Shown: positions 6,006-52,127 of the stretch, in pieces
How positions within the stretch are numbered: the first letter of the stretch is position 1
Layout of the letters: each line of letters starts with the position of its first letter
DNA from: Chthonomonas sp. UBA6659
Lineage (GTDB): Bacteria; Armatimonadota; Fimbriimonadia; Fimbriimonadales; Fimbriimonadaceae
Direction: 5' to 3'
Assembly: GCA_002455425.1 (NCBI GenBank)
Contig: DKKT01000071.1
Span: 214,835-278,834 of the forward strand
DNA length: 64,000 bases
Notes under the pieces: model-generated
The model's database searches: none
The model's input: the letters and a program-made list of their open reading frames with translations, nothing else
Told to the model about the DNA's origin: nothing
Position numbers and translations under genes: made by a program

Positions 6006-6887
6006 ATGAAGAAAGCGTTTACGCTTATCGAACTTCTGGTTGTTATTGCAATCATCGCCATTCTGGCAGCCATTCTGTTCCCCGTCTTCGCCCAGGCTAA
6101 GGAAGCCGCGAAGAAGACGGCCGACCTGTCGAACGTGAAGCAGTCCTCGACGTCGTTCCAGATGTATCTGGCCGACACCGATGACGTGTGGCCGCTTGCC
6201 ATCGGGCAAGATGCCGCCGGCGTCTGGCTGTGGAACTTCAACCACTACATCCCCGCCGACTATCCGAGCGCCGCGGGTGGCGATGGCAGCTATGCCCGCC
6301 GCATCGTCGCTTCGGTCAGCAGCTGGGCCAACTCCATGCAGCCGTATTCGAAGAACTACGACATCCTCGCTTCCCCGGGTACCCCGGCGGTCAGCGCGGG
6401 TGGCGCTTCTCTCGCCACGGTTGCGGCCGGCAAGCGCCGAGCCAACAGCACCCTGACGTACAACGGTATCCTCCACGGCTTTGGCCAGTCGGGTATCGCT
6501 ACGCCGTCCAAGCTCCCCGTCCTCTGGAACGGTCGCGGCAAGGCTCAGACGATCGGTGCGGCTCTCGCCAACCCGGTGCTCTACTGTAACCAGGCGAACC
6601 TGCCTTGTACGTACATCCCGGCCGCCTCCGGATGCTCCAGTGCCATCAACGGCCAGCAGTCGGCGATGTTCGTGCTGTCCGGTTCGATGTGGGTCTACAG
6701 CAAGGGCGCCAACTTCGCCATGGCCGACGGTTCTGCCAAGTTCCGCCGACTCGGTGCGACGCTCTCCCCGCGAGATACCGACTACAACACCGACCCGTAC
6801 ACCGGATACGACGCCAACGGCTTCCCCGGATTCTACTGGTGGGACCTCTGCCACAGCTGGTTGTTCCGCCCGAACATCGAGTGGTAA
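6006..6887 (+). CDS. prepilin-type N-terminal cleavage/methylation domain protein, DUF1559-like (H-X9-DG family)
   Basis: N-terminus [37 protein letters not shown] is a class III signal / type IV pilin-like methylation motif. RBS ggagg upstream. Confidence 0.8.
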   Translation: MKKAFTLIELLVVIAIIAILAAILFPVFAQAKEAAKKTADLSNVKQSSTSFQMYLADTDDVWPLAIGQDAAGVWLWNFNHYIPADYPSAAGGDGSYARRIVASVSSWANSMQPYSKNYDILASPGTPAVSAGGASLATVAAGKRRANSTLTYNGILHGFGQSGIATPSKLPVLWNGRGKAQTIGAALANPVLYCNQANLPCTYIPAASGCSSAINGQQSAMFVLSGSMWVYSKGANFAMADGSAKFRRLGATLSPRDTDYNTDPYTGYDANGFPGFYWWDLCHSWLFRPNIEW

Positions 6888-8954: not shown

Positions 8955-9311
8955 TCAGCGCCTGCGCCGGAATGGACCCTCGGCAACCACGTCGCCGTTC
9001 TCGTCGAGCAGCAGGGCGATCGAGGTCTGGTCAATGGCAGGTGCCCCCCGCGACCAGCGCTGCGTCACCCGGGCTCGGCCGAGTCCGTTCGTCACGACAT
9101 CCCAGACATTGTCCCCGATCTGCAGGGTGAACGACGCATTGCGAGGCAGTCGCTCGCCTTCGAACTGGAGTTCGGCCTGGGCGCCACGGGCCTTGAAGAC
9201 GGCTTTTGTCTTGCCCAGACCCACGAGGTCGGCTCGATACTCGGCGCGGGTCTGGCAGAGGCCGGCAACGGCCAGGATGAGCGTCAGGAACAGTGCGGTC
9301 AGCAGTTTCAT
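8955..9311 (-). CDS. small secreted hypothetical protein
   Basis: Internal start MKLLTALFLTLILAVAGLCQ gives a signal peptide. Divergent from the ECF sigma gene. Confidence 0.4.
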   Translation of the reverse strand: MKLLTALFLTLILAVAGLCQTRAEYRADLVGLGKTKAVFKARGAQAELQFEGERLPRNASFTLQIGDNVWDVVTNGLGRARVTQRWSRGAPAIDQTSIALLLDENGDVVAEGPFRRRR

Positions 9312-9399
9312 CGGTTGGTTACTCCTTGCACCACCCTCTGGGCGGTCGTGGCACGCAAGAGGCACCCGTTTCCGCCCGTGATACACTCACAGGAAGAAA

Positions 9400-10008
9400 A
9401 TGTGGAAGGACGCCGACGTCGAAATCGAACGACTCTTGACGCGGTGCCGCGCCGGCGATCGCGACGCTTGGACCAAGCTCGTCGAGCGACTCCAAAGCAC
9501 GGTTTTCGGCGTGACACGCCGACTCGGGCTGAGCGAAGCCGATGCCGCTGACGTCTTCCAGGCCACGTTCATCGCGCTGTACCGCAACCTCGACCGGATC
9601 GATCAAGCCCTGACGCTCCCCCGGTGGATCGCCGTAACCGCCACCCGCGAATGCTATCGGGTACGTCGAACCTACCCGGAAGCGACCGGCTCGGCCGACG
9701 AGCGAACCCTGGAGGACACGATCGCCGTCGAACAGCGCTCGGCCGAGGAGATCGCGATCGAGAGTGAGCGAGCATTGGTCCTTCGCGAAGGCCTCGAACA
9801 ACTCGGAGGTCGATGCCGCGTGCTTCTCACGCTGCTGTACGGAGAAGTCGAGACATCCTATATCGAGATCGGCGCAAAGCTCGGGATGCCGATCGGCGCG
9901 ATCGGCCCGACCCGCGCGCGGTGCCTTGAGAAGCTGCGGAAGATCCTCGAGAGGGAAGCCTACTTCCGCGAAGTCGACGTATCACCGGAGCGCGTCCGTA
10001 CCTCTTGA
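9400..10008 (+). CDS. ECF-type RNA polymerase sigma factor (sigma-70 family, regions 2 and 4)
   Basis: Region 2 motifs (DAADVFQATFIALYRNLDRID) and a region 4 HTH (YIEIGAKLGMPIGAIGPTRARCLEKLRK). Confidence 0.8.
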   Translation: MWKDADVEIERLLTRCRAGDRDAWTKLVERLQSTVFGVTRRLGLSEADAADVFQATFIALYRNLDRIDQALTLPRWIAVTATRECYRVRRTYPEATGSADERTLEDTIAVEQRSAEEIAIESERALVLREGLEQLGGRCRVLLTLLYGEVETSYIEIGAKLGMPIGAIGPTRARCLEKLRKILEREAYFREVDVSPERVRTS

Positions 10009-10553
10009 ACCCGACCATGCGACCCTGCCGACGATTCGAACAAGCGCTGATCGTCCTCGCCGAAGGCGGCGAGGCTCCTGAAGCTGCGGCTCACCTCGAT
10101 CAGTGCGAGGGGTGCACGCGGCGCCTCGCCGAGTATCGCCACCTGCTCGGCGAAGGCGGGATCGCGAGAGTGACGCAAAACGCCCCCGCCGAGTGGATCG
10201 CCCGAGCCGCCGCGATCTTCCCGGAAGCACGCCGAGCCGCCGTGCTTCGCCACTCCCTGAGCCAGGTCGGGGCCCGTCTCCGCGACACCGATACCCTCCA
10301 GATCGCCTACGAGGTCGATGGCGTGGTCCTTCGCGTTCAGTACGCACGCCTCGGCACCGGCTGGCAAATCACCGGCCGCGTCCCCGACCTCTCGTGGACC
10401 GTTCAGCACCGAGGCGCATCCGTGCCGCTCGATCCCGAAGGCGGCTTCCAGATCGACGTTCGTGAGACCGCCGACACCGGCTTCGATCTGGTGCTTCCCT
10501 CCGGGCGCGTTGCGATCCCCGGCGTCGCCGAGGCTCTCGGTGAGCCCGTCTAG
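10005..10553 (+). CDS. zinc-binding anti-sigma factor (ZAS-type), apparently cytoplasmic
   Basis: ATGA overlap with the sigma gene. H-x3-C-x2-C motif (HLDQCEGC). No hydrophobic membrane-spanning segment is visible. Confidence 0.6.
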   Translation: MNPTMRPCRRFEQALIVLAEGGEAPEAAAHLDQCEGCTRRLAEYRHLLGEGGIARVTQNAPAEWIARAAAIFPEARRAAVLRHSLSQVGARLRDTDTLQIAYEVDGVVLRVQYARLGTGWQITGRVPDLSWTVQHRGASVPLDPEGGFQIDVRETADTGFDLVLPSGRVAIPGVAEALGEPV

Positions 10554-10668
10554 CCTCGTCGCTGCCCTGGAGGTCTGCAGCGTTGCGTCGGGTCGCCGCC
10601 TTCTGCGACGTCACCGGGGAACGCCGGGCGTCTGTGCCGCCTACATCGATCGGGTCATCGCGATCTTC

Positions 10669-13131
10669 ATGAGCGATCCCGGCGACGTGGGTCGACTCGC
10701 CCGGCATTGGCGGGCGATCGTCGAGTACGGAGACGATCCCGCCCAGGGGTATCGGGCTCACGGCATCGCATGCCGGGCGCGCGGGCGCTGGTCCGCCGCC
10801 GCCGAGAGCTTCATCCATGCTGGACGTCTCGCCCGTGACCCGATCGCCCGGGCATCGCTGCCGATCGGGGCGATCGACAGCCTCGCTCGCGATGGCCGCA
10901 TCGAAGAGGGTGTCCTACTCGGTCGAAGGTTGGCTCGCCGGCTGCTCCGGCTCGGCCAATCCGATCTTGCCGGGCGCGCCCTTCTCAACGCCGGCAACGC
11001 GGTCCTGTGGGCCGACCGTTATCGGGAGGCGAAACAGCTCCTCGAGCGAGCGATCGAGCGGCTCGAAACACCGAGCCTCGCGGTCGGAGCCCGGCTCGGC
11101 CTTTCCACTTGCGAGTTGTACGGCGGCTCGACCGCGCGCTCTCTCGAACTGGCCGACCAGGCCCTCGCTGAGTTCGAGGCGCTCGACCAGGACTACTCGG
11201 CCGCCCTTTGCCGCCTGAATCGTGGGCAGGCTCATCTGCTCCTCGGTCGGCCGGATCAGGCCCTGTCCGACCTCCTCTCCGCTCGGGATCGACTGTCCGG
11301 ACCCGACTTGGCTCGCACGGAGGAGTTCCTCGGTGACACCTACCTTCGCCTTCAGCTTGCCCCTGAGGCGATCGATGCCTACGAGCGCGCTCTCGCTCTT
11401 GGCGCGACGCCCCTGAACACCGCCAACTGCCGGCTCGGGCTCGGCATGGCTCGCGATCTCAGCGGCCGCCCGAGAGAAGCGCGCACGGAGTTCGCCCGAG
11501 CCGAGCGGGCTTACCGAAAGGTGAACAATGCCGTTTGGGAGTCGGTCGCGGCGCTTGACGCGGCGCGCCTCGCCCACGACCGGTCGCGAGCGACGCGAGT
11601 AGCGGACCGCCTCAAATCGGTTGGAGGTCCATACCACCGGTGTTGGTCCTCGATCGTGGTCCTTGAGATGGCGGGGTCGAATCCACTTCCAGCAGAGATT
11701 GCCCGCGCTCTGCGCGACGTCCGTCGTGGTGGATTCATCGATCTCGAATGGCGGCTCTGGGCGCTTCGGGCTCGATCCGCGGCCCCACGCGAACGTTTGC
11801 GGCTCTACCGCCGAATGCTCGACAGCATCCTGGAAGCGCGTCTCTTGATTCGGTCGCACCTGGCCCGCACGCAATACCTCGTCGACAAGAGCGAGGCGGT
11901 CCGAGAGTACCTGAGTCTCCTTCTCGCTCGTGGCCGAGCTCCCGACGTCCGCGAAGCGCTTGAGGCAGTGACGGCGCTCCGCTCGGCGGCTCTGGTGGAT
12001 GAAGTGCTCTCCGCTCGACCCGGAGCCCTCAGCGCCGAGAGTCGCGCCCAACTGGAAGTTCTTCGGAGCGAACTGTCCGTGTCGGGCGAGTCGAGTGGAG
12101 GAAGTCGGCGGGCCCGGGTGGGCCGCCCTTCGGTCAGCCTACGACGAGCGTGGCGGGAGATATGTCACCACACGGTGAACAGGCTTTCGAGTCCTTTCGG
12201 TCCCGCGACGCCGGCCACCGTCTTCGTGCTCGGAGATCGAGCATACCGACTTGGTCAGGGACGCTCAACGCCCCTTGGGCTGGGTCCGGCGGACCTCCGA
12301 CGCGAACTCCGGATGATCGAGTACGATCTCCTTGAGCCCACGATCTGCCCCGATGGCGACCCCGCTGCGGTGCTTTGCCGGATCGAGCGACTGGCCGAAC
12401 GTCTCTTCGAGAGCGGAATGGGGTTCATCGGACCGATCTGCCCGGATGGTGAGTTGTGGCAGGTGCCTTGGCAAGCCGTCATCTCCGCGCTCGATCCGGC
12501 GCGCTCGGCGTTGCTGGTGCCGACTCCTCGCTTCGGGGGCACCGCCATCGATCTCCGGTTGCCGCGCCGCCCGGCCGTCACGATTTGGGCCGGACAAGCC
12601 GGTGACATTCCCCACGTCCGTGCCGAGGTGAGGGCCGTGCTCGCCGCCTTCCCGGAGGCGCGGGTCTGCACGACCGCCGCCGAAGTGCTCGAGTCGCTTG
12701 AAGGGGGCAGGATCGATCTTCTTCATGCCGCCACCCACGGACGGCTCGACGCCTCGAACCCGATGTTCTCTTCGCTCGAGCTCGGCGGCCAGAGGTTGTT
12801 CGCGGCCGATCTCGCACGAGCCCGCGTCCGACCCAAGCTCGTCTTCCTTTCCGCCTGCGAGACGGCGCGGCTAACGGCACTCAACCGGGACGAACCGGAC
12901 GGCCTCGCCCGAGCGTTCCTCGCTCTTGGTGCAGAGGCGGTCGTCGGCAGCCAATGGCCGCTCGACGATGCGATCGCCTCGATCTTCACTGGCCACGCGA
13001 TCGAGGCGCTTGCCGGAGGCGCGACCCTCGGCGAGGCGATGAGGTCGGGACGAAACAAGGCGAGGTCCTTGCGCAGTCACCCCTATTTTTGGGCCTCGAT
13101 GGTATCAATCGGCGGATTCTCGGGTACTTAG
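10669..13131 (+). CDS. TPR-repeat / CHAT-domain protein (caspase-like peptidase domain)
   Basis: C-terminal CHAT signature with a His…Cys dyad (LLHAATHG … VFLSACETA), preceded by long TPR-like helical repeats. First ATG after the anti-sigma stop is at 10669; an in-frame GTG at 10540 is an alternative. The track ORF start at 10318 overlaps the anti-sigma gene and is rejected. Confidence 0.65.
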   Translation: MSDPGDVGRLARHWRAIVEYGDDPAQGYRAHGIACRARGRWSAAAESFIHAGRLARDPIARASLPIGAIDSLARDGRIEEGVLLGRRLARRLLRLGQSDLAGRALLNAGNAVLWADRYREAKQLLERAIERLETPSLAVGARLGLSTCELYGGSTARSLELADQALAEFEALDQDYSAALCRLNRGQAHLLLGRPDQALSDLLSARDRLSGPDLARTEEFLGDTYLRLQLAPEAIDAYERALALGATPLNTANCRLGLGMARDLSGRPREARTEFARAERAYRKVNNAVWESVAALDAARLAHDRSRATRVADRLKSVGGPYHRCWSSIVVLEMAGSNPLPAEIARALRDVRRGGFIDLEWRLWALRARSAAPRERLRLYRRMLDSILEARLLIRSHLARTQYLVDKSEAVREYLSLLLARGRAPDVREALEAVTALRSAALVDEVLSARPGALSAESRAQLEVLRSELSVSGESSGGSRRARVGRPSVSLRRAWREICHHTVNRLSSPFGPATPATVFVLGDRAYRLGQGRSTPLGLGPADLRRELRMIEYDLLEPTICPDGDPAAVLCRIERLAERLFESGMGFIGPICPDGELWQVPWQAVISALDPARSALLVPTPRFGGTAIDLRLPRRPAVTIWAGQAGDIPHVRAEVRAVLAAFPEARVCTTAAEVLESLEGGRIDLLHAATHGRLDASNPMFSSLELGGQRLFAADLARARVRPKLVFLSACETARLTALNRDEPDGLARAFLALGAEAVVGSQWPLDDAIASIFTGHAIEALAGGATLGEAMRSGRNKARSLRSHPYFWASMVSIGGFSGT

Positions 13132-13134
13132 AGA

Positions 13135-14334
13135 GTGATGAAGGGATTGCGTTTCGTTTCCGTCTTCGTCTTGGCGGGATGGGCCGGGGTCGCGCAGGCG
13201 GCGTTGCTGATCGCTCAGCTGAACACGAACACCGCCGCGGGAGCGGTGGCGACTCGATATGGCATCCAACTCCTTGATGTCACGCCGGGCGCGCCGTTCG
13301 CACGCTTCAACGTGCCGGCCGGGCTGAACGCGGACACGATCCAGGTTCGGATGGTGAGCGAGGGCCGTGCCATCTGGTGCGAGGATGACGCCCAGGTCAT
13401 CATGCCCGAACACTCCGGTGCGGGCAAAGGATCGACGATCTCCGCGGTCGGAGATCGGTCCACGCTTCAAGGGCTCAACAGCACCTTTCTGCGCCAAATC
13501 CAGTGGTCGTCGAGCCTTGCCGCAACCTCCGGACGCCGGGTGAAGCTCGCGATTCTCGATACCGGAATCAGCCCGCAGCAACCCGCCTTGTGGGCCAAGG
13601 TCTCGGCGAGCATGAACGCGATCGAGGGCGGTCAGCCTCCCCATGATGTCGCGCGTGGGCGTGACACGAGTGGCAATGGGCGGCCGGATGAAGCCGTTGG
13701 TCACGGAACCATGGTCGCGGGCCTCGTCGACCAAGTCGGGCCGCAGGTCCAACTCGTGATCGCTCGAGTCGCCGACAGCGATGGCGTCGCGACCGCGTGG
13801 ACGATCATCGAAGGCTTGGCGTTCGCGGTGAATCAAGGCGCGGAAGTTGCCAACGTGAGTCTGGGCGCGATCCAGCGCATCCCCGCCCTGTCCGATGTCC
13901 TCGATTGGACGGAGCAAAGAGGTCTCCTCGTCGTGGCGGCGATCGGAAACAACGGTCAGCGGCGCTCGCTCTCACCGGCGACGATTTCGAAAGTCGTGTC
14001 GGTGGCCGGCGTTCAATCCGGCGACGCGAAGGCGTCGTTCAGCAACTGGGAAGGGAAGACGCTCGCGTGCGCGCCCGCCTCGGGCCTCAAGAGCTTCTGG
14101 TGGGATGGCACCCTCGGAGTCTGGTCGGGTACCTCGTTCGCGGCTCCCCTCGTTTCGGGAGCGATCGCGGACTGTCTGAGGCGGCGGACGACACGACTCA
14201 CGCCCGACGCGATCCGGAAGCTGTTACGAAATGCGGGCGACGACGTGAACGCTCAGAACCGCAGCTATCGAGATCAGTTGGGCAGGCGGTTGAATATCGC
14301 CAAACTGGATGACGCCATCCGCCGCGGGCGGTAA
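13135..14334 (+). CDS. S8 family (subtilisin-like) serine peptidase with signal peptide
   Basis: Catalytic triad contexts DTGIS (Asp), HGTMVAG (His) and GTSFAAPLVSG (Ser). Confidence 0.8.
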   Translation: MMKGLRFVSVFVLAGWAGVAQAALLIAQLNTNTAAGAVATRYGIQLLDVTPGAPFARFNVPAGLNADTIQVRMVSEGRAIWCEDDAQVIMPEHSGAGKGSTISAVGDRSTLQGLNSTFLRQIQWSSSLAATSGRRVKLAILDTGISPQQPALWAKVSASMNAIEGGQPPHDVARGRDTSGNGRPDEAVGHGTMVAGLVDQVGPQVQLVIARVADSDGVATAWTIIEGLAFAVNQGAEVANVSLGAIQRIPALSDVLDWTEQRGLLVVAAIGNNGQRRSLSPATISKVVSVAGVQSGDAKASFSNWEGKTLACAPASGLKSFWWDGTLGVWSGTSFAAPLVSGAIADCLRRRTTRLTPDAIRKLLRNAGDDVNAQNRSYRDQLGRRLNIAKLDDAIRRGR

Positions 14335-14386
14335 CGGCGGTGATGGTCGAGCCCGCGGTGGTGCCGCGGGCTCGGAGAGGCACGCC

Positions 14387-15673
14387 CTACCCCTGAGCGA
14401 TCTCCCTCGCACGGGCGTCGTGCAGGTACGGATTCATCGCGAGTGCCTCGGCTGCCAACGACCTCGCCGCTTTGCGGTCTCCGAGCGCATGACGGATCTG
14501 CGCGGCCCGTGACATCAACACGGCATCGCGCGTTCCGTGTCGGAGGGCCCGCTTCATCGCCCGATCCGCTTCCTCAAACCGCCCGGCCTTGAAGTAGGCC
14601 CAAGCCAGCGTCGAGTAAGCCTGAACGCTGGTATGGTCGGAGACCTCGGACTCGACGAGGGCGAGCGCCTGGTCGATGTGGAGATCGTGATCGAGCCAGA
14701 AGGACGCGAGATTCAGTTCGTCACCATAGACGCCGAAGGAGCGGTGCGATGCGATCAGAGTCGGAATCCTCGCGTGGGTCGCCGTCGCCTTCGCTTCGTC
14801 GCCAATTTCGCGATACAGGTCCCCGAGTTCGGCCAGGTACGGGATCTGGGTCATACCGTCGGTCGCGATCTCGAGGTGATCGATGGCCTTCGCAAGCGAG
14901 CCCTCCGACCGGAGGAGCCGCGCCACCCCCGCATGGGCGGGTTTGCTCATCGGTGTCGCCTCGAGCGCGAGTTCGTACTGCTCCCGAGCGAGCTTCAGGT
15001 TGCCGGTCTTGAGCGCCATGTCTGCCAACTGAACGCGGCACCACGCCACGTGCTCCTCGAATCCTGCACCGGCCTGGATCGCGCGTGCCATCATCTCCAT
15101 CGCGCCGACCGGATCGCCGTAAACCCACCGGAGATGGGCGGCACGGCTGTATGCGGCCAGCGAGGGCTTCGCGTCGAGCATCTTCTGGGTGGCGTCAAGT
15201 GCCTTCTCGTACTGGCCTAGCTCCGTGTACGCATCGCTCAGCACGCCCCACGCCTCATCGTCGTAAGGACTCGCCGCGACCGCCCTCCGTGCGTGTCGGA
15301 TCGCCGATCCGAACTGATGGAAGATCGTCAGAGCGTAGGCGAGCCGGTGCTGCGCAACCGGTTCTTCCGGATGCAGCGCGACCGCCTTTTCGAACGCTTT
15401 GCGTCCGTCGACGTACCATTGGAGGTCGCCCGTTTCGCGGCCCTTCTGCATGGCGACGCTTCCAAACTCGAGCAACGCGGCGAGGTCGTTCGGCTGCTTC
15501 GACAACATCCTCCGCGCCTTTTCCACCCGCGAGTCGATCTTGGACGCGGTCCGAAGGGCGGCCGGGCGGTGCGCGGAGGATCGGGTTGCTCCGCATCCGG
15601 AGAGAAGGACCGCGATCGTGATCGCGGCCAGAGACGTGATGGCGAAGAGCTTCATGGTGTGAATCGGTTTCAT
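14387..15673 (-). CDS. TPR-repeat lipoprotein
   Basis: Signal/lipobox LLSGCGA followed by multiple TPR-like helical repeats. Confidence 0.6.
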   Translation of the reverse strand: MKPIHTMKLFAITSLAAITIAVLLSGCGATRSSAHRPAALRTASKIDSRVEKARRMLSKQPNDLAALLEFGSVAMQKGRETGDLQWYVDGRKAFEKAVALHPEEPVAQHRLAYALTIFHQFGSAIRHARRAVAASPYDDEAWGVLSDAYTELGQYEKALDATQKMLDAKPSLAAYSRAAHLRWVYGDPVGAMEMMARAIQAGAGFEEHVAWCRVQLADMALKTGNLKLAREQYELALEATPMSKPAHAGVARLLRSEGSLAKAIDHLEIATDGMTQIPYLAELGDLYREIGDEAKATATHARIPTLIASHRSFGVYGDELNLASFWLDHDLHIDQALALVESEVSDHTSVQAYSTLAWAYFKAGRFEEADRAMKRALRHGTRDAVLMSRAAQIRHALGDRKAARSLAAEALAMNPYLHDARAREIAQG

Positions 15674-15691
15674 AGATAGTTCTCCAAAAGG

Positions 15692-16591
15692 TTAGCGAGG
15701 TGGCTGCGAGAGAGGGTATCGAATCCGATGGTCGGGGAACTGGTCGGTGCGGGCCTGGCTCCATCGCATCCAGCGCACATGGCCGTCGGCGTAGACGTAG
15801 TTCGCGCCTCCGTTGTGGCGGTCGTAGGCGATCCACCCCTGGTCGGGGCGACTCCCGGCTCCCCATCGGACCATGGCGGCTTCTCCGGCCCATGTGTCGT
15901 AGTCGTCCTGGGGAACGTAGTGGAACGAGCTCCCGCCATCGAGGAATCCGGCTGAATTTCGCTCCGAAAACATGATCACGTTGGGGTCTTCGAGACCCGA
16001 AAGCACGGACTCACTGGCAAACGTGGGCAGAACACCTTCCAGCGCGTACCGGCAGCTCTTGTGAGAGAAGATCGAGTTGAGCAAGTAGCTCCACATGCTC
16101 AACTGCTTCTGGTGCGCCATGCATTGTTCGCTTCGGGGAGCAACCGAGCATTCCGTGCCGATCTCTTCGATCCCTCCGTTGAACGCGTCGATGTCTCGGG
16201 CGAGGTGGGTGCTGCGCGGTGCTCGGTCACTCGGGCAGAAGAGCAGTTCCCGGCTCTTCAGGTAAGGCTGAAAGAAAATGGCCCAGGGCTTCTCGGCCTG
16301 GCTATTGCCAAAGCCGCCACCTTCACAGTCCGCGGCATCGGTCGGCAATTCGGTGACGAGTGTGCCGTCGTCGAGAACCCAGTCGTCGTGGTGGTGGAAG
16401 AGGGAGCCCTCGTTGTCCGTCATGTACATCTGGGCGGCTTGGCCGAGCTGGCGCATGTTCTGAAGGCAGGTCGACTTCCGGGCGGCTTCGCGGGCTTGAG
16501 CGAAGGCGGGGAAGAGGATGGCGGCGAGGATCGAGAGGATTGCGATGACGACGAGAAGTTCGATGAGGGTGAACGCGGTTCTGGTTTTCAT
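15692..16591 (-). CDS. prepilin-type N-terminal cleavage/methylation domain protein, DUF1559-like (second copy)
   Basis: [50 protein letters not shown] – same architecture as 6006..6887. Confidence 0.8.
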
Positions 16592-16647
16592 GGGCTTGGG
16601 GGTGACGGTGCTCCCCGCCGAAGCGGGGAGCCGATGGTCGTCGAAGA

Positions 16648-18063
16648 CTAGTGAAGGGTGCCGGTCGGGCCGCCATGCGGCGCCGAGAGGTACGGGAAGA
16701 CCTGGTTGTAGGCCATGTCGTTGGTGTCGACGAAGTCGCCGAGGGAAGTGATCGTCGAATACTGCGGGCCGCTTGCGATCGCGGTCAGGGCGATGTCGAC
16801 CACGTCGTCACCGGGGCGGCGACCGTTCGGCCAGCCAGACGGAATCGCCTTGCTTTGGAACGGGCTCTGGATCGTGTCGCCGCCGAGGAAGCTCAAACGG
16901 TGGAACGCACTCTGACCCGCCACCGGAACCCCGGCCGTCGAGCAGTCGACTCGAAGGAGATCGGGAATGAAGATATCGACGAGGTCGTTGCGGTTTTGGA
17001 CTTGGAACGGGGTTCCGAAGACCGTGTTGAGGAGGAAAGCCAGTTCGCAGTTCTGCGCGTACTTCTTGAAGAGAAGGGGGTCTCGGCTCGGAGTTTCCCG
17101 ATTGTAGAGGTCCTTGTCTCTGAGGGCGACAAGGGTCTCGTTGAACAAGGGGTTACCCATCCGTCCGACCTGAATCCAGGGTCCCTGGATGTTGTCGCCA
17201 TCGGTCGCGAGCACCGTCGTCTTGCGTCGCGAGGTCGTCGCCCACGCACCGACCATCGGAACCTCGTTCGCACCTACGACACGTCCGAGCGGAATCTGCA
17301 AGGTGATCGAGTGGACGTTGAACCCGCTGAAGCCATCCTTGCCCGGATTGCGGACACCGAGGAGGTCGAAAATCCCGGGGACGTCGGCATAGAACGGATC
17401 GTCGCGCTGCCCGGCGAAGACGCGTGTCCCATCCCGGAGGGTGTAGATCGTTTGTCGCGTGTAGTCGTCGAGATCGTTGGACATCGTCGCACCGTTCTTC
17501 ACTCGACCCGTGTTGTCGTAGTAGGCAGGTGTCGTGCGGGGGCCGACGTTGACCGGCGGCACCGCCATCGAGGAGCGATTCAGGATCTCGGTTCGTCCTC
17601 CGGTGACCCGCTCGACGACGTACGTCTGAGTGAGGTTCTGCCGGGCATCCCCGACGTTCAGGATCGGGCCGGCCTCAGTCCCCAGGCCGTATGAAAGGAT
17701 CGTGCCCTTGTTCTTGTAGCGGGTCGTGAAGCGGAAGTTGTACGTGATGTCGTTGCGGCCATTCCAGATCAGGGCTCCATCACGACCGCGAAGCGCCTTG
17801 TTGATGTGGAAGCTGTACTGGACGTCATCCGCAAAACGGTAGTAATTGACGCCGTTGCCCGGATCCTCAAGCGGGATCACGTTCATCATCAGATTCAGGT
17901 AACTCTGGTTTCCAGACTTCGAGATGAACGCGTACACGTCGGAGATGTTCGCGCTCGGATCGGTCATGATGAGGGGCGCGTCGTTGTGGCTCGCCGCGTT
18001 CGCGGCGAGCGTGGCCGCGCCGAGGGCAAGGCCAAGAGTGAGGGTCTTCAGGGTTCGATTCAT
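16648..18063 (-). CDS. DUF4331-like secreted protein
   Basis: After the signal peptide, …[23 protein letters not shown] matches the N-terminal SSHREAPxI…D.TDvYaF signature of DUF4331. Start at 18063 (RBS ggagg) preferred over 18096. Confidence 0.55.
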
Positions 18064-18224
18064 GATTCCTCCAAGAGCTGGTTCAAGCTCGTTCACCCCT
18101 GAACAAGGGAGACGGGTATGACCAAACCCTCACGCGAATCTGAATGGGGAGTGAACATCGCGGAGAGAGAATCCTGGGACGGCCTGTGCGGCCTGAGTAC
18201 AATGGTCGAAACGCCTCGAATCCT

Positions 18225-49912: not shown

Positions 49913-50908
49913 TCAGCGGATCGTCTTCGAAAGCCGCTCAAGTTCCGAGCGGCCGACATCCCCGACGAGGATGAGTGTGCGCTCTCCGCTCCGCCACGAG
50001 TAGACGTCGAACCGAGGTCCGCCCGCGAGTCGCTCCAGGCGTCGTTGATCGATCTCACCGGTGACTTGGTAGAACGAGAAGCGTCCTTTAGCTCCCGAAT
50101 ACATCTGCATCATGCCCTTCCGAGGGCCGAGATCGACCGGGCGGACGTCTTCAAGTTCGTAGGGCTCGGACGCCGGGATGCGCAGCGGGCTGAATCCAAG
50201 CTTCTTGGCGATCCGACCCACGAGGTCGTCGAGGGTCACGACCTTCGCGCCTCGTCGCAGTATCCGAAAGTCGTCCGGCGAGAACCGGGGGTTGAAGTTC
50301 ACCTTCGTGAACTCGAAAAAGCCGATGCGCGTGCCGACCGGGTCCAAGATTTCGCGCTTGAGGAGCATGCCGGTTGCTGGGTCGATCCACATCCGGTGGA
50401 CAACGTTGCCTTCGGGATCCGTGAGAATCATCTGCTTGGTGGCGACGCCCGCGATCTCACCGCCGGCATCGATCCTGAATCTCAGGCCACCTTCGCGGAT
50501 CTGGCGCGCGAGCATCCCCAAGCGTCCGATCATCTCCTCGCGTCGCGGACGCAGTACTTGGATCTCGTTCTTCTGAGGATCGTACTGGCGTCGTTCGCGA
50601 CCGTTTTCCACGATGATCTGGCCGGCGTTCGGGCTGTCGGGTGAGAATTCGATCCGCTGCCGTTCACCGTCCTTGAGGACGATTTCGGTATTGCGCACAC
50701 GGTCCGGACCGTTGCGGAACTCGACCACGCGCGTTCCGGAGAAGCGAAGCGTCGGTTGACTTTGGAGCATCTTGCGGAGAAGCTCAGGCCCAGGCCCACC
50801 CGGGCCGGGTCCGCCCGGGCGTCCGCGCGGACCCGGCTGGGCCATCGCGAGGGCACTCAGCCCAAGGATCGCCGCCACCAGCCCGCCCAGTCTCTCGATT
50901 CGGATCAT
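49913..50908 (-). CDS. periplasmic RseB/LolA-like regulatory protein downstream of the sigma/anti-sigma pair
   Basis: Signal peptide MIRIERLGGLVAAILGLSALAMA. Gly/Pro-rich linker. ATGA-coupled to the anti-sigma gene. Beta-rich. Confidence 0.4.
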   Translation of the reverse strand: MIRIERLGGLVAAILGLSALAMAQPGPRGRPGGPGPGGPGPELLRKMLQSQPTLRFSGTRVVEFRNGPDRVRNTEIVLKDGERQRIEFSPDSPNAGQIIVENGRERRQYDPQKNEIQVLRPRREEMIGRLGMLARQIREGGLRFRIDAGGEIAGVATKQMILTDPEGNVVHRMWIDPATGMLLKREILDPVGTRIGFFEFTKVNFNPRFSPDDFRILRRGAKVVTLDDLVGRIAKKLGFSPLRIPASEPYELEDVRPVDLGPRKGMMQMYSGAKGRFSFYQVTGEIDQRRLERLAGGPRFDVYSWRSGERTLILVGDVGRSELERLSKTIR

Positions 50909-51378
50909 AGCGTTCCTAGGTCTACCTCACTGAACGATCCGTTTTGTTGCCCGAGCCCGGTCGCGCGCTCGGCCGGGGAGCCCGTCCCGAGGTCGAGCAT
51001 GCTGAGCCCGTCCTGGTGCGCGGCGAGGAGATTCGCTTCCACCGACGCCTTCTCCCCCGAGCTTGTCGTGCCCGGGTTGGCCGTGGGCTTCAAGCCAACG
51101 AGATAGACGGTCAGCGTGAGGGCGCTTGCGAGACCGAGTCCCATGACCGAAGCCCAGCGCCATCGCATCTTGGGCTGCCGCACCGGCGTTCGCACCGCGT
51201 GGAGCCGCTCATTGAGGGCGCTGCGCCAGGCCAAGCTCGGATCCTCGTCGGTCAACTCCCCGACCCACGACCGAATCTCGGCATGCTCACGCGAATCAAG
51301 AGCCATCTCAAGCCGAATCTGCTCGTCTCGACTCAGGCCCTTCTCGCGCTTCAGTTTCTCTTCAAACTCAGAATTCAT
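50905..51378 (-). CDS. membrane-spanning anti-sigma factor
   Basis: ATG at 51378 overlaps the sigma stop (TGATG). N-terminal cytoplasmic helix region, one TM segment (WASVMGLGLASALTLTVYLVGL), periplasmic tail. Confidence 0.55.
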   Translation of the reverse strand: MNSEFEEKLKREKGLSRDEQIRLEMALDSREHAEIRSWVGELTDEDPSLAWRSALNERLHAVRTPVRQPKMRWRWASVMGLGLASALTLTVYLVGLKPTANPGTTSSGEKASVEANLLAAHQDGLSMLDLGTGSPAERATGLGQQNGSFSEVDLGTL

Positions 51379-52010
51379 CACTGCACCGTCTCCCCGTTCC
51401 AATATTTCCGTACGTAGCCCTGCAAATGAGCGCGTGCCAAGAACAAGCGACTCTTCACCGTTCCGACCGGAATCCCCATCGTCTCCGCGATCTCCTCGTA
51501 GCCCATGTCCTCCTTGTCATGAAGAAGGAGCACGGTCCGGAGCTTATCGCTCATCGTCGAGATGGCGAGTTCGACGACCCCTTGGAACTCCTCGTCGAGG
51601 ATCATCCCTTCGGGGTCCCAGCGCGAATCGGCGACGTCGATCGTTTCACTCTCGTCAGCCGCCGAGGCGTCGAGTCGCAGCTCGGTCGGATGGCGGTCGT
51701 TGCGTCGCACCCGGTCGACGCACAGATTGTAAGCAATTTTGAACAACCACGACCGGAGCGAACAGCGCCCGTCGAACCGTCCGAAGCCCTGGTAGGCCCG
51801 GATGAACACGTCCTGGGTGATGTCGAGGGCCTCCTCGGTGTTGGCGCACATGCGCTTCACGAAACCGAGCACTCGGGCTTGGTACGCATCGACGATCTTG
51901 CCGAAGGCTTCGAAGTTCTGGAGTCGGCACTGCTCGATGAGAGCCGCTTCCGACGCCGAATCGAGATGCCTATTGGCCGCCAATCGAGTAACCCCGCTGA
52001 ACACGCTCAT
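51378..52010 (-). CDS. ECF-type sigma factor (RpoE-like)
   Basis: Region 2 (…DITQDVFIRAYQGFGRFDGRCSLRSWLFKIAYNLCVDRVRR…) and region 4 (…MGYEEIAETMGIPVGTVKSRLFLAR…). Confidence 0.8.
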   Translation of the reverse strand: MSVFSGVTRLAANRHLDSASEAALIEQCRLQNFEAFGKIVDAYQARVLGFVKRMCANTEEALDITQDVFIRAYQGFGRFDGRCSLRSWLFKIAYNLCVDRVRRNDRHPTELRLDASAADESETIDVADSRWDPEGMILDEEFQGVVELAISTMSDKLRTVLLLHDKEDMGYEEIAETMGIPVGTVKSRLFLARAHLQGYVRKYWNGETVQ

Positions 52011-52127
52011 CACGGAGCGTAAACGCTGAAATCGAGCCAAGGTTCACTCCCCGGCCATGGAGGGACTTTGGTCCTGCCGACCGTGTCGAACGGAGAGACG
52101 CGCGATCCGGCTCGAAAGTTCGGTCCC

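Follow-up and report, generated by a model that had tools for sequence, protein, structure and literature searches.

Within a 64,000-nt stretch of Chthonomonas sp. UBA6659 DNA, called the window from here on, we analyzed a cassette of four genes that lie head to tail on the + strand (9400-14334). They encode a sigma factor of the extracytoplasmic function (ECF) type, a soluble anti-sigma factor, a tetratricopeptide repeat (TPR) protein with a caspase-like CHAT domain, and a subtilisin-like peptidase of family S8. An earlier note, made from the letters of the window alone, had described these four genes, including the HLDQCEGC motif of a ZAS (zinc-binding anti-sigma) protein, and all of them were found where it had placed them. 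The cassette recurs in relatives of the host. Most likely, it serves as a gene switch operated by a protease, for which only CRISPR-linked systems have provided examples until now.

Gene content and predicted products

Judged by its domain matches, the first gene encodes a predicted ECF (group IV) sigma-70 factor. The protein matched Pfam Sigma70_r2 (1.1e-9, 38.3 bits; cutoff 24) and r4, as well as the NCBIfam model for sigma70-ECF proteins, TIGR02937 (79.3 bits over residues 22-183; cutoff 42.9). Its closest solved relative was SigW of Bacillus subtilis (5wuq_A, E=9e-11). None of the NCBIfam equivalogs was matched at its cutoff, the nearest being SigW with 67 bits against a cutoff of 209.

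The second gene encodes a putative class I (ZAS-type) anti-sigma factor, predicted to inhibit the adjacent sigma factor. The window protein alone had no Pfam or NCBIfam match. A word-indexed search retrieved one near-identical protein and a 90-sequence profile retrieved four there, and it was an exhaustive HMMER search that revealed the family: 167 cluster representatives, nearly all 170-185 aa long and aligned end to end. On these alignments, we consider it a real and unannotated protein family. Its profile matched RsiW (5wuq_C, E=8e-5) and RslA, and the best solved relatives of the sigma factor and of the anti-sigma family, SigW and RsiW, are partners in the same PDB entry (5wuq). Pfam zf-HC2 was matched individually by 22 of the 90 family members. 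The window protein has the features of a ZAS protein: an H-x3-C-x2-C motif together with an N-terminal Cys, for putative zinc binding, a helical class I anti-sigma fold, and a gene that adjoins an ECF sigma gene. The four ligands of this CHCC site (C4, H26, C30, and C33) were each at least 90% conserved in the 90-sequence family alignment.

The AlphaFold model of the anti-sigma factor (mean predicted local distance difference test, pLDDT, of 90) displayed a three-helix bundle (residues 5-45), a fourth helix (58-67), a loop, and a beta-sandwich (93-167). The protein would thus consist of an RsiW-like ZAS helical N-terminal domain (5-67) and an immunoglobulin (Ig)-like C-terminal domain (93-167); no cupin match was found for the latter. 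The loop between them seems flexible, with a mean pLDDT of 71 for the block 81-90 versus 93-98 for the neighbouring blocks, and contains an A-G-A-R motif in which Arg87 is nearly invariant (118/120 sequences; Gly85 95/120 and Ala86 89/120). We found no membrane segment in 34 orthologs (highest 19-residue Kyte-Doolittle mean, 1.48). The absence of a transmembrane segment, reported in the earlier note for the window gene, held after the gene model was checked, and the predicted solubility is confirmed as a family property and not a gene-model artefact. A mis-modelled membrane-anchored anti-sigma factor was rejected on the same 34-ortholog comparison.

The product of the third gene has the features of a TPR-CHAT protein: a TPR superhelix and a CHAT domain with a His-Cys dyad, which predict protease activity. 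It matched Pfam CHAT (1.8e-31, 110 bits; cutoff 24) and TPR_12 (6e-15). In its AlphaFold2 model (pLDDT 82.7), an all-helical TPR superhelix (residues 1-514) is followed by a disordered loop (514-555) and the CHAT domain (about 556-863). H729, H733, and C773 were invariant in 33 of 33 orthologs, and the invariance of the dyad suggests that the protein is competent as a protease. As in the anti-sigma family, no membrane segment was found in the CHAT family. The top Foldseek matches of the model were Csx29 (8eey_B, 5.7e-13), DdvA (8rw5/8rot, 2.7e-12), and separase (about 5e-11); the top matches had E values from 6e-13 to 1e-10 over more than 800 columns, with low global TM-scores (0.27-0.42). With the sequence profile of the CHAT protein, Csx29 was the only CHAT structure reached. 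The disordered loop carries GGSRRA, which resembles the A-G-A-R loop of the anti-sigma factor. This small-small-Arg motif was aligned in most of the 33 orthologs, and it is a possible autoprocessing site.

The fourth gene encodes a predicted secreted pre-pro subtilase of family S8. It matched Pfam Peptidase_S8 (9e-30, 104 bits; cutoff 21.8), and its closest solved relatives were thermitase and subtilisin. The catalytic triad, Asp (ILDTG, D141), His (GHGT, H189), and Ser (GTSFA, S333), and the oxyanion Asn (N271) were at least 93% conserved in 39 orthologs. A signal peptide (about residues 1-22) precedes a propeptide-like region and the catalytic domain. The N-termini of all 39 orthologs presented a basic stretch, a hydrophobic segment ending in an Ala-x-Ala-like site, and a propeptide-like region, in agreement with the earlier note, which had called the enzyme secreted. 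We judged the signal peptide by hydropathy (minimum KD12 1.48, median 2.34 across the 39 orthologs). No signal segment was found in the sigma factor, the anti-sigma factor, or the CHAT protein. Since only S8 has one, it would be exported, and the other three would stay in the cytoplasm.

The junctions between the genes needed some correction. The sigma/anti-sigma junction had been called ATGA-coupled; instead, the sigma stop TGA (10006-10008) overlaps the TTG at 10005 (TTGA), and the first ATG of the anti-sigma gene, at 10017, is 8 nt downstream of that stop. The CHAT gene does follow the anti-sigma gene directly, as had been noted, but a length of about 820 aa is too short. The GTG at 10540 is most likely its start, because the 44 residues gained in this way can be aligned to the N-terminal ends of ten homologs and because orthologous genes overlap their upstream neighbour by 4-26 nt. 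With this start, the protein has 863 aa and its gene shares 14 nt with the anti-sigma gene; the ATG at 10672 would give 819 aa. S8 is likewise close behind CHAT, at 3 nt past its stop (GTG 13135) or 6 nt (ATG 13138) and not at 4 nt.

Table 1. Coordinates of the cassette genes and associated features in the window
Feature	Position	Strand	Details
Small secreted protein (SSP) gene	8955..9311	-	118 aa; facultative fifth gene, head-to-head with the sigma gene
Promoter-like element	9358..9387	+	AGAGGC (9358-9363), 18-nt spacer, extended -10 TGATACACT (9379-9387)
AGGAAG, ribosome-binding-site-like	9391-9396	+	Upstream of the sigma start
ECF sigma factor (group IV)	9400..10008	+	202 aa; Pfam r2/r4, TIGR02937
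Soluble two-domain anti-sigma factor	10017..10553	+	178 aa; alternative TTG start at 10005
HLDQCEGC, H-x3-C-x2-C zinc motif	10092..10115	+	Translation checked; with Cys4, putative CHCC site
Gly85-Ala86-Arg87	10269..10277	+	In the flexible loop that links the sigma-binding domain to the beta-sandwich; candidate protease site
TPR-CHAT caspase-like protease (predicted)	10540..13131	+	863 aa; Pfam CHAT and TPR_12
Disordered interdomain loop with GGSRRA	12079..12204	+	CHAT protein residues 514-555, pLDDT <50
Predicted catalytic dyad	12736..12858	+	His733 (12736-12738), Cys773 (12856-12858)
S8 subtilisin-like peptidase, secreted (predicted)	13135..14334	+	399 aa; Pfam Peptidase_S8
GC-rich inverted repeat	14348..14374	.	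11-bp stem, 5-nt loop; separates the S8 stop from the convergent TPR gene

Conservation and genomic setting of the cassette

We scanned one genome per GTDB species with the CHAT alignment as query and ran hidden Markov models (HMMs) of the four window proteins over the six-frame open reading frames of all loci. The scan retrieved 36 full-length relatives (species-level loci) and 44 further matches to the CHAT domain only, in Streptomyces, cyanobacteria, and others. The relatives were labelled Armatimonadota, Fimbriimonadia, Fimbriimonadales, Fimbriimonadaceae, or Fimbriimonas, with the exceptions of one "bacterium" and one "Methanoregulaceae" metagenome-assembled genome (MAG). A complete cassette (L015, JADZEW010000021.1) lies on a 228-kb contig labelled "Methanoregulaceae archaeon"; this contig is probably mis-binned, since the cassette is otherwise exclusive to Fimbriimonadia. 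Judged by this distribution, the organism of the window most likely belongs to Fimbriimonadia as well.

The order anti-sigma, CHAT, S8 was found in every locus with enough sequence: the window, the 36 GTDB species loci, and seven metagenomic loci. On their own contigs, five close CHAT homologs displayed the same succession of a protein of about 175 aa, CHAT, and S8 among unrelated flanks. Coming from the anti-sigma side, where synteny was checked with two distant members only, both relatives (23-29% identity) also lay within a full cassette. None of the three partners of CHAT was seen beside the 44 distant CHAT-domain proteins. Chance adjacency of the four genes is excluded by their recurrence in 36 + 7 loci with unrelated flanks.

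Gene order in relatives had been proposed as a check in the earlier note. The order was kept, and the reading frames overlap or nearly abut, which argues for co-transcription: an overlap of 4-26 nt joins the anti-sigma gene to the CHAT gene in nearly all loci, and in most the CHAT and S8 genes share 4 nt. Mean pairwise identities were low (sigma 46%, anti-sigma 27%, CHAT 34%, S8 42%), and the pairwise distance matrices of the four proteins correlated (r=0.48-0.72; 26 loci), which together suggest that the unit is old and co-inherited. From sequence comparison, the four genes are predicted to be one translationally coupled operon, inherited as a unit across Fimbriimonadia.

The position of the sigma gene is less constant. 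About 30 loci have it immediately upstream in the same orientation, and three have it inverted (divergent; L018, L021, and L022). In another three (L003, L004/L038, and L012), it was not found within 6-7 kb, and the trio of anti-sigma, CHAT, and S8 stays together there. The anti-sigma factors of these sigma-less loci have an intact ZAS motif. Either the cognate sigma factor must be elsewhere in these genomes, or the trio must have a sigma-independent role.

The zinc motif can also be missing. H-x3-C-x2-C was lost in 7 of 34 cassette orthologs (L001, L005, L009, L017, L027, L036, and L041), which keep Arg87, the Ig-like domain, the adjacent sigma gene, and the whole cassette. Such losses in otherwise intact cassettes suggest that zinc or redox sensing is not an essential input.

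Two MAGs harbor two paralogous cassettes each (L009 and L027 in JBGSIJ01; L010 and L035 in JBBQMJ01), from which insulated specificities could be expected, as with paralogous sigma/anti-sigma pairs. In two other MAG loci (L026 and L029), the CHAT frame is split into two HMM matches in different frames, which points to a frameshift, due either to an assembly error or to a pseudogene.

Upstream of the sigma start codon, most loci presented a TGnTAnnnT element at a distance of 7-15 nt, which suggests very short leaders or none; in the window, TGATACACT sits 12 nt ahead of the sigma ATG. AGAGG-N15-18-GTGATACA recurs in the window's subclade, the cassettes closest to it. When bipartite 5-mer/4-mer motifs were enumerated upstream of 28 sigma orthologs, only AGAGG...GATACA exceeded the shuffled controls, and this in one subclade. 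The extended -10 element TGnTAnnnT seems to be a housekeeping-type promoter, going by its resemblance. A scan for consensus sigma-70 promoters and terminators made no call. At the other end, the inverted repeat after S8 is likely the end of the operon, as far as its sequence tells; it is without a T-tract, and the terminator scan made no call there.

A small secreted protein (SSP) can join the cassette. Homologs adjoin 11 of about 33 cassettes (the window, L006, L015, L017, L018, L020, L021, L022, L036, L037, and L041), always divergent from the sigma gene in a head-to-head arrangement. In the three cassettes with an inverted sigma gene, SSP heads the anti-sigma-CHAT-S8 operon. The protein has about 120 aa and a Sec-type signal peptide and is beta-rich, and it had no Pfam match and no PDB sequence match. 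A relationship to the C-terminal domain of the anti-sigma factor was rejected (hhalign probability 1.9%).

The surroundings of the cassette differ between loci and include SufBD, secretin, IMPDH, Lnt, and sulfate assimilation genes; no cas genes were found among the annotated neighbours of seven loci. In the window, the neighbours (14387-18096 on the - strand and 6006-6887 on the + strand) encode a TPR protein, a prepilin-type N-methylation/DUF1559 protein, a DUF4331 protein, and another N_methyl protein, and none of these is kept beside the cassette in other genomes. Further away, the window contains a second, conventional ECF sigma gene (51378-52040, - strand; Pfam r2 and r4_2) with a MucB/RseB-like gene downstream (49913-50908, - strand). 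This pair resembles envelope-stress modules of the RpoE type and seems to have no relation to the cassette.

Proposed control of the sigma factor and its alternatives

We tentatively read the cassette as a self-contained cytoplasmic sigma switch that is gated by a protease and has an exported arm, a reading to which we give slightly less than an even chance and in which cleavage is the presumed step. In the resting state, the anti-sigma factor would hold the sigma factor with its N-terminal zinc helical domain, as RsiW holds SigW, and its Ig-like domain and the preceding loop would be presented to the TPR-CHAT protein, made in step from the overlapping gene. The TPR superhelix of about 500 residues, which in the model is the obvious candidate for the sensor of the input signal, would read a cytoplasmic cue, and the His733/Cys773 dyad would be activated. 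The CHAT protease would cut the anti-sigma factor, for which the position after the near-invariant Arg87 in the A-G-A-R loop is the most plausible site, and the disordered G-S-R-R loop of the protease itself may be cut too. General proteases would clear the anti-sigma fragment and the sigma factor would be released to RNA polymerase. The exported S8, with SSP where present, would act outside the cytoplasm as a co-expressed partner or as output.

Several findings point to the CHAT protein as the dedicated inactivator of the anti-sigma factor. Their genes form the tightest pair of the cassette and are kept together also where no sigma gene is adjacent. DdvA fuses these two modules, and in Craspase a TPR-CHAT protease cleaves a sigma inhibitor. 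Arg87 is kept in 118 of 120 sequences within a loop, and the CHAT loop has a similar small-small-Arg motif. The seven orthologs without zinc ligands still keep Arg87, the Ig-like domain, and the cassette, and S8 would be in the wrong compartment. Cleavage after Arg is also the specificity of metacaspases and orthocaspases. Separase shares it (PMC11506125). The earlier suggestion that the CHAT protein inactivates the anti-sigma factor gains from the gene overlap, the invariant dyad, and the likeness to Csx29 and DdvA, while the switch as such stays a proposal.

Other points weigh against this proposal. We infer both the binding and the cleavage of the anti-sigma factor by the CHAT protein, and Arg87 could have a structural role or belong to a binding surface instead of marking a cleavage site. 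CHAT specificity varies, with Met or Leu for craspases and Arg for separase (PMC11506125). In DdvA, CHAT cleavage is hypothetical, and mutants of the dyad had no phenotype under the conditions tested (PMC11506125). At the transcriptional level, no ECF-type -35/-10 promoter was found upstream of the 28 sigma orthologs, the promoter and regulon search recovered no sigma regulon, and the operon itself seems to have a housekeeping-type extended -10. Finally, the switch leaves unexplained the role of S8, which is invariably linked, translationally coupled, and exported.

A redox or thiol switch is an unlikely alternative, although one to be taken seriously. In this case, the ZAS anti-sigma factor would sense oxidative or electrophile stress via its CHCC site, as an RsrA-like protein, and CHAT and S8 would be mere co-expressed cargo or output. 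The conservation of the CHCC ligands across the 90 family members fits this reading, as do the solubility of the anti-sigma factor, shared with RsrA and ChrR, and the place of CHAT and S8 downstream in the same transcript, where regulon members are usually found. However, the seven of 34 cassettes that lost H-x3-C-x2-C keep everything else, and anti-sigma, CHAT, and S8 persist in the three loci without an adjacent sigma gene. Moreover, the anti-sigma/CHAT overlap is tighter than the sigma/anti-sigma junction, RsiW, RslA, ChrR, and many other ZAS proteins use zinc structurally, and with a housekeeping-like operon promoter CHAT and S8 are not obviously sigma-dependent.

The CHAT protein could also act on its partner without proteolysis. 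It would bind the Ig-like domain or the loop as a sensor, scaffold, or anti-anti-sigma factor, with its true substrates elsewhere; in a variant, the anti-sigma factor would be a securin-like inhibitor or a chaperone of the CHAT protease. Translational coupling suggests a stoichiometric complex, the extra domain of the anti-sigma factor is not needed for sigma binding, and separase, which is held by the pseudosubstrate inhibitor securin, is among the top structural matches. Nevertheless, the invariant His/Cys dyad (33/33) shows that catalysis is under selection, and the cassette has no other conserved candidate substrate besides the exported proteins. Both versions taken together appear rather improbable to us.

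Less probable again is a role as an anti-phage or conflict module, in which the TPR-CHAT protein would detect an invader protein and trigger defensive transcription or proteolytic damage. This is compatible with the proposed mechanism and assigns it a different role. The closest relatives, Csx29 and DdvA, act in defence (PMC10028731, PMC11506125), and the genomic position of the cassette is variable, with two paralogous copies in each of two MAGs. PADLOC gave weak domain-level matches (BovA at 3.7e-8 over the CHAT core, a generic subtilase, and IetS), but no full-length match of the cassette components to any defined defence system. The neighbours are housekeeping or unrelated genes and not defence islands, and no cas genes are among them. 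A Sec-exported subtilase would be odd as an abortive-infection effector, and the cassette is confined to one bacterial class, where it looks mainly vertically inherited.

As the simple switch does not account for S8, an obligate neighbour, we also considered a loop across two compartments, which we regard as a long shot. S8 would cut an extracellular substrate, the resulting peptide cue would reach the TPR domain, CHAT would cut the anti-sigma factor after Arg87, and the sigma factor would be freed. SSP is a possible substrate of S8 or a possible pro-signal, whose peptide would be taken up and bound by the TPR domain. RRNPP-type peptide receptors offer a comparison for the binding of an imported peptide by TPRs. 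If true, this loop would wire peptide or quorum sensing to transcription via a caspase-like protease.

That S8 itself inactivates the anti-sigma factor, the other half of the earlier suggestion, is hardly credible, even though the two are linked in every cassette for which sequence is available. The Sec-type signal peptide and the propeptide of 39 of 39 orthologs, with extracellular subtilisins as closest solved relatives, should place S8 in a different compartment from the sigma factor, the anti-sigma factor, and CHAT, all of which lack signal and membrane segments. Nor does the cassette offer a membrane-spanning anti-sigma factor for a site-1-type cut.

Relation to known anti-sigma and protease-sigma systems

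For the sigma/anti-sigma pair, the nearest known system is SigW/RsiW of B. subtilis (PDB 5wuq). RsiW is a single-pass membrane protein that is destroyed by PrsW and RasP in regulated intramembrane proteolysis. In contrast, the anti-sigma factor of the cassette is soluble, and its Ig-like domain replaces the transmembrane and extracytoplasmic part. A pathway of regulated intramembrane proteolysis (site-1/site-2) was rejected, with the anti-sigma factor soluble in 34 of 34 orthologs. Soluble zinc anti-sigma factors are known from ChrR (with RpoE, in Rhodobacter sphaeroides) and RsrA (with SigR, in Streptomyces). ChrR joins an N-terminal anti-sigma domain to a C-terminal beta-rich sensor domain, a cupin. 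The anti-sigma factor described here has two domains as well, with an Ig-like sandwich instead of the cupin. To our knowledge, neither RpoE/ChrR nor SigR/RsrA is linked to a CHAT protease or a subtilase.

The closest parallels to the whole cassette are systems that involve a CHAT protein. A full-text literature search for CHAT together with ECF or anti-sigma retrieved only the papers on DdvA, Craspase, and SAVED-CHAT. CHAT and Armatimonadetes are both absent from the main text of the ECF reclassification; its supplementary gene-context tables were outside this search, and the sigma factor could belong to a numbered ECF group listed there with a CHAT protein in its gene context. The statement in the earlier note that CHAT proteins are rarely assigned a bacterial substrate is outdated in one respect, since Csx29-Csx30 and SAVED-CHAT-PCaspase have become known.

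DdvA is a ZAS anti-sigma factor fused to a TPR-CHAT domain (PMC11506125). It resembles the cassette in combining a CHCC zinc anti-sigma domain, an ECF sigma factor, and a separase/craspase-type TPR-CHAT part with an intact His/Cys dyad, it was the second-best structural match of the CHAT model (E=2.7e-12), and cleavage of itself or of the anti-sigma factor by CHAT has been proposed as the trigger there too. However, DdvA is a single polypeptide with a transmembrane helix and a periplasmic TPR-CHAT part, and RseP-type intramembrane proteolysis follows. The cassette encodes two separate proteins, both soluble, whose genes (10017-10553 and 10540-13131) overlap and are read in different frames. 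A membrane step is impossible here. Its anti-sigma factor has an Ig-like C-terminal domain of its own, an exported S8 is an obligate neighbour, no CBASS or CRISPR regulon is linked, and the hosts are Armatimonadota and not Myxococcota. The anti-sigma factor is thus not of the DdvA type, given the separate genes and the lack of a membrane segment in either family.

In the type III-E Craspase system (Cas7-11, Csx29, Csx30, and CASP-sigma), Csx29 cleaves Csx30, the inhibitor of an ECF-like sigma factor (PMC10028731). As proposed for the cassette, a TPR-CHAT protease relieves inhibition by cleaving a soluble inhibitor of an ECF-like sigma factor (PMC10028731), and Csx29 was the best structural match (8eey_B, 5.7e-13) and the only CHAT match by sequence profile. 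The cassette lacks Cas7-11, crRNA, Csx30, and Csx31, so its activation is not RNA-guided. Its inhibitor is a canonical ZAS anti-sigma factor unrelated to Csx30, and it includes S8. Identity with the Csx29 equivalog was rejected: NF041237 gave 29 bits against a cutoff of 300, and no cas genes were among the annotated neighbours of seven loci.

Two type III CRISPR protease-sigma cascades, CalpL-CalpT-CalpS and SAVED-CHAT/PCaspase/PCc-sigma (bioRxiv 10.1101/2023.06.23.546230), also place a soluble protease beside a sigma/anti-sigma-like pair and use proteolysis to signal to transcription, and two proteases per locus are found there as here. Their proteases are switched on by cyclic oligoadenylates via SAVED domains, whereas the cassette is without SAVED, CARF, or cyclase. 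Its second protease is an exported serine protease, while that of SAVED-CHAT/PCaspase is a cytoplasmic caspase.

Beyond the individual parallels, the cassette defines an unannotated family of soluble anti-sigma factors, and in it a caspase-like protease of the cytoplasm is the obligate companion of a secreted subtilase. It suggests that the link between ZAS and CHAT is older and wider than one myxobacterial protein. With a soluble protein of 178 aa, another of 863 aa, and a candidate Arg site, cleavage of the anti-sigma factor by CHAT can be tested without membranes, guide RNAs, or cyclic nucleotides.

Sigma release by a caspase-like TPR-CHAT protease has so far been known only inside CRISPR systems (Craspase). 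The protease-gated switch that we propose would work like Craspase-Csx30-CASP-sigma, CalpL-CalpT-CalpS, and the mechanism proposed for DdvA, and the cassette is a member of none of them: it is a free-standing, all-soluble, split ZAS/TPR-CHAT module with an obligate secreted subtilase, confined to Fimbriimonadia.

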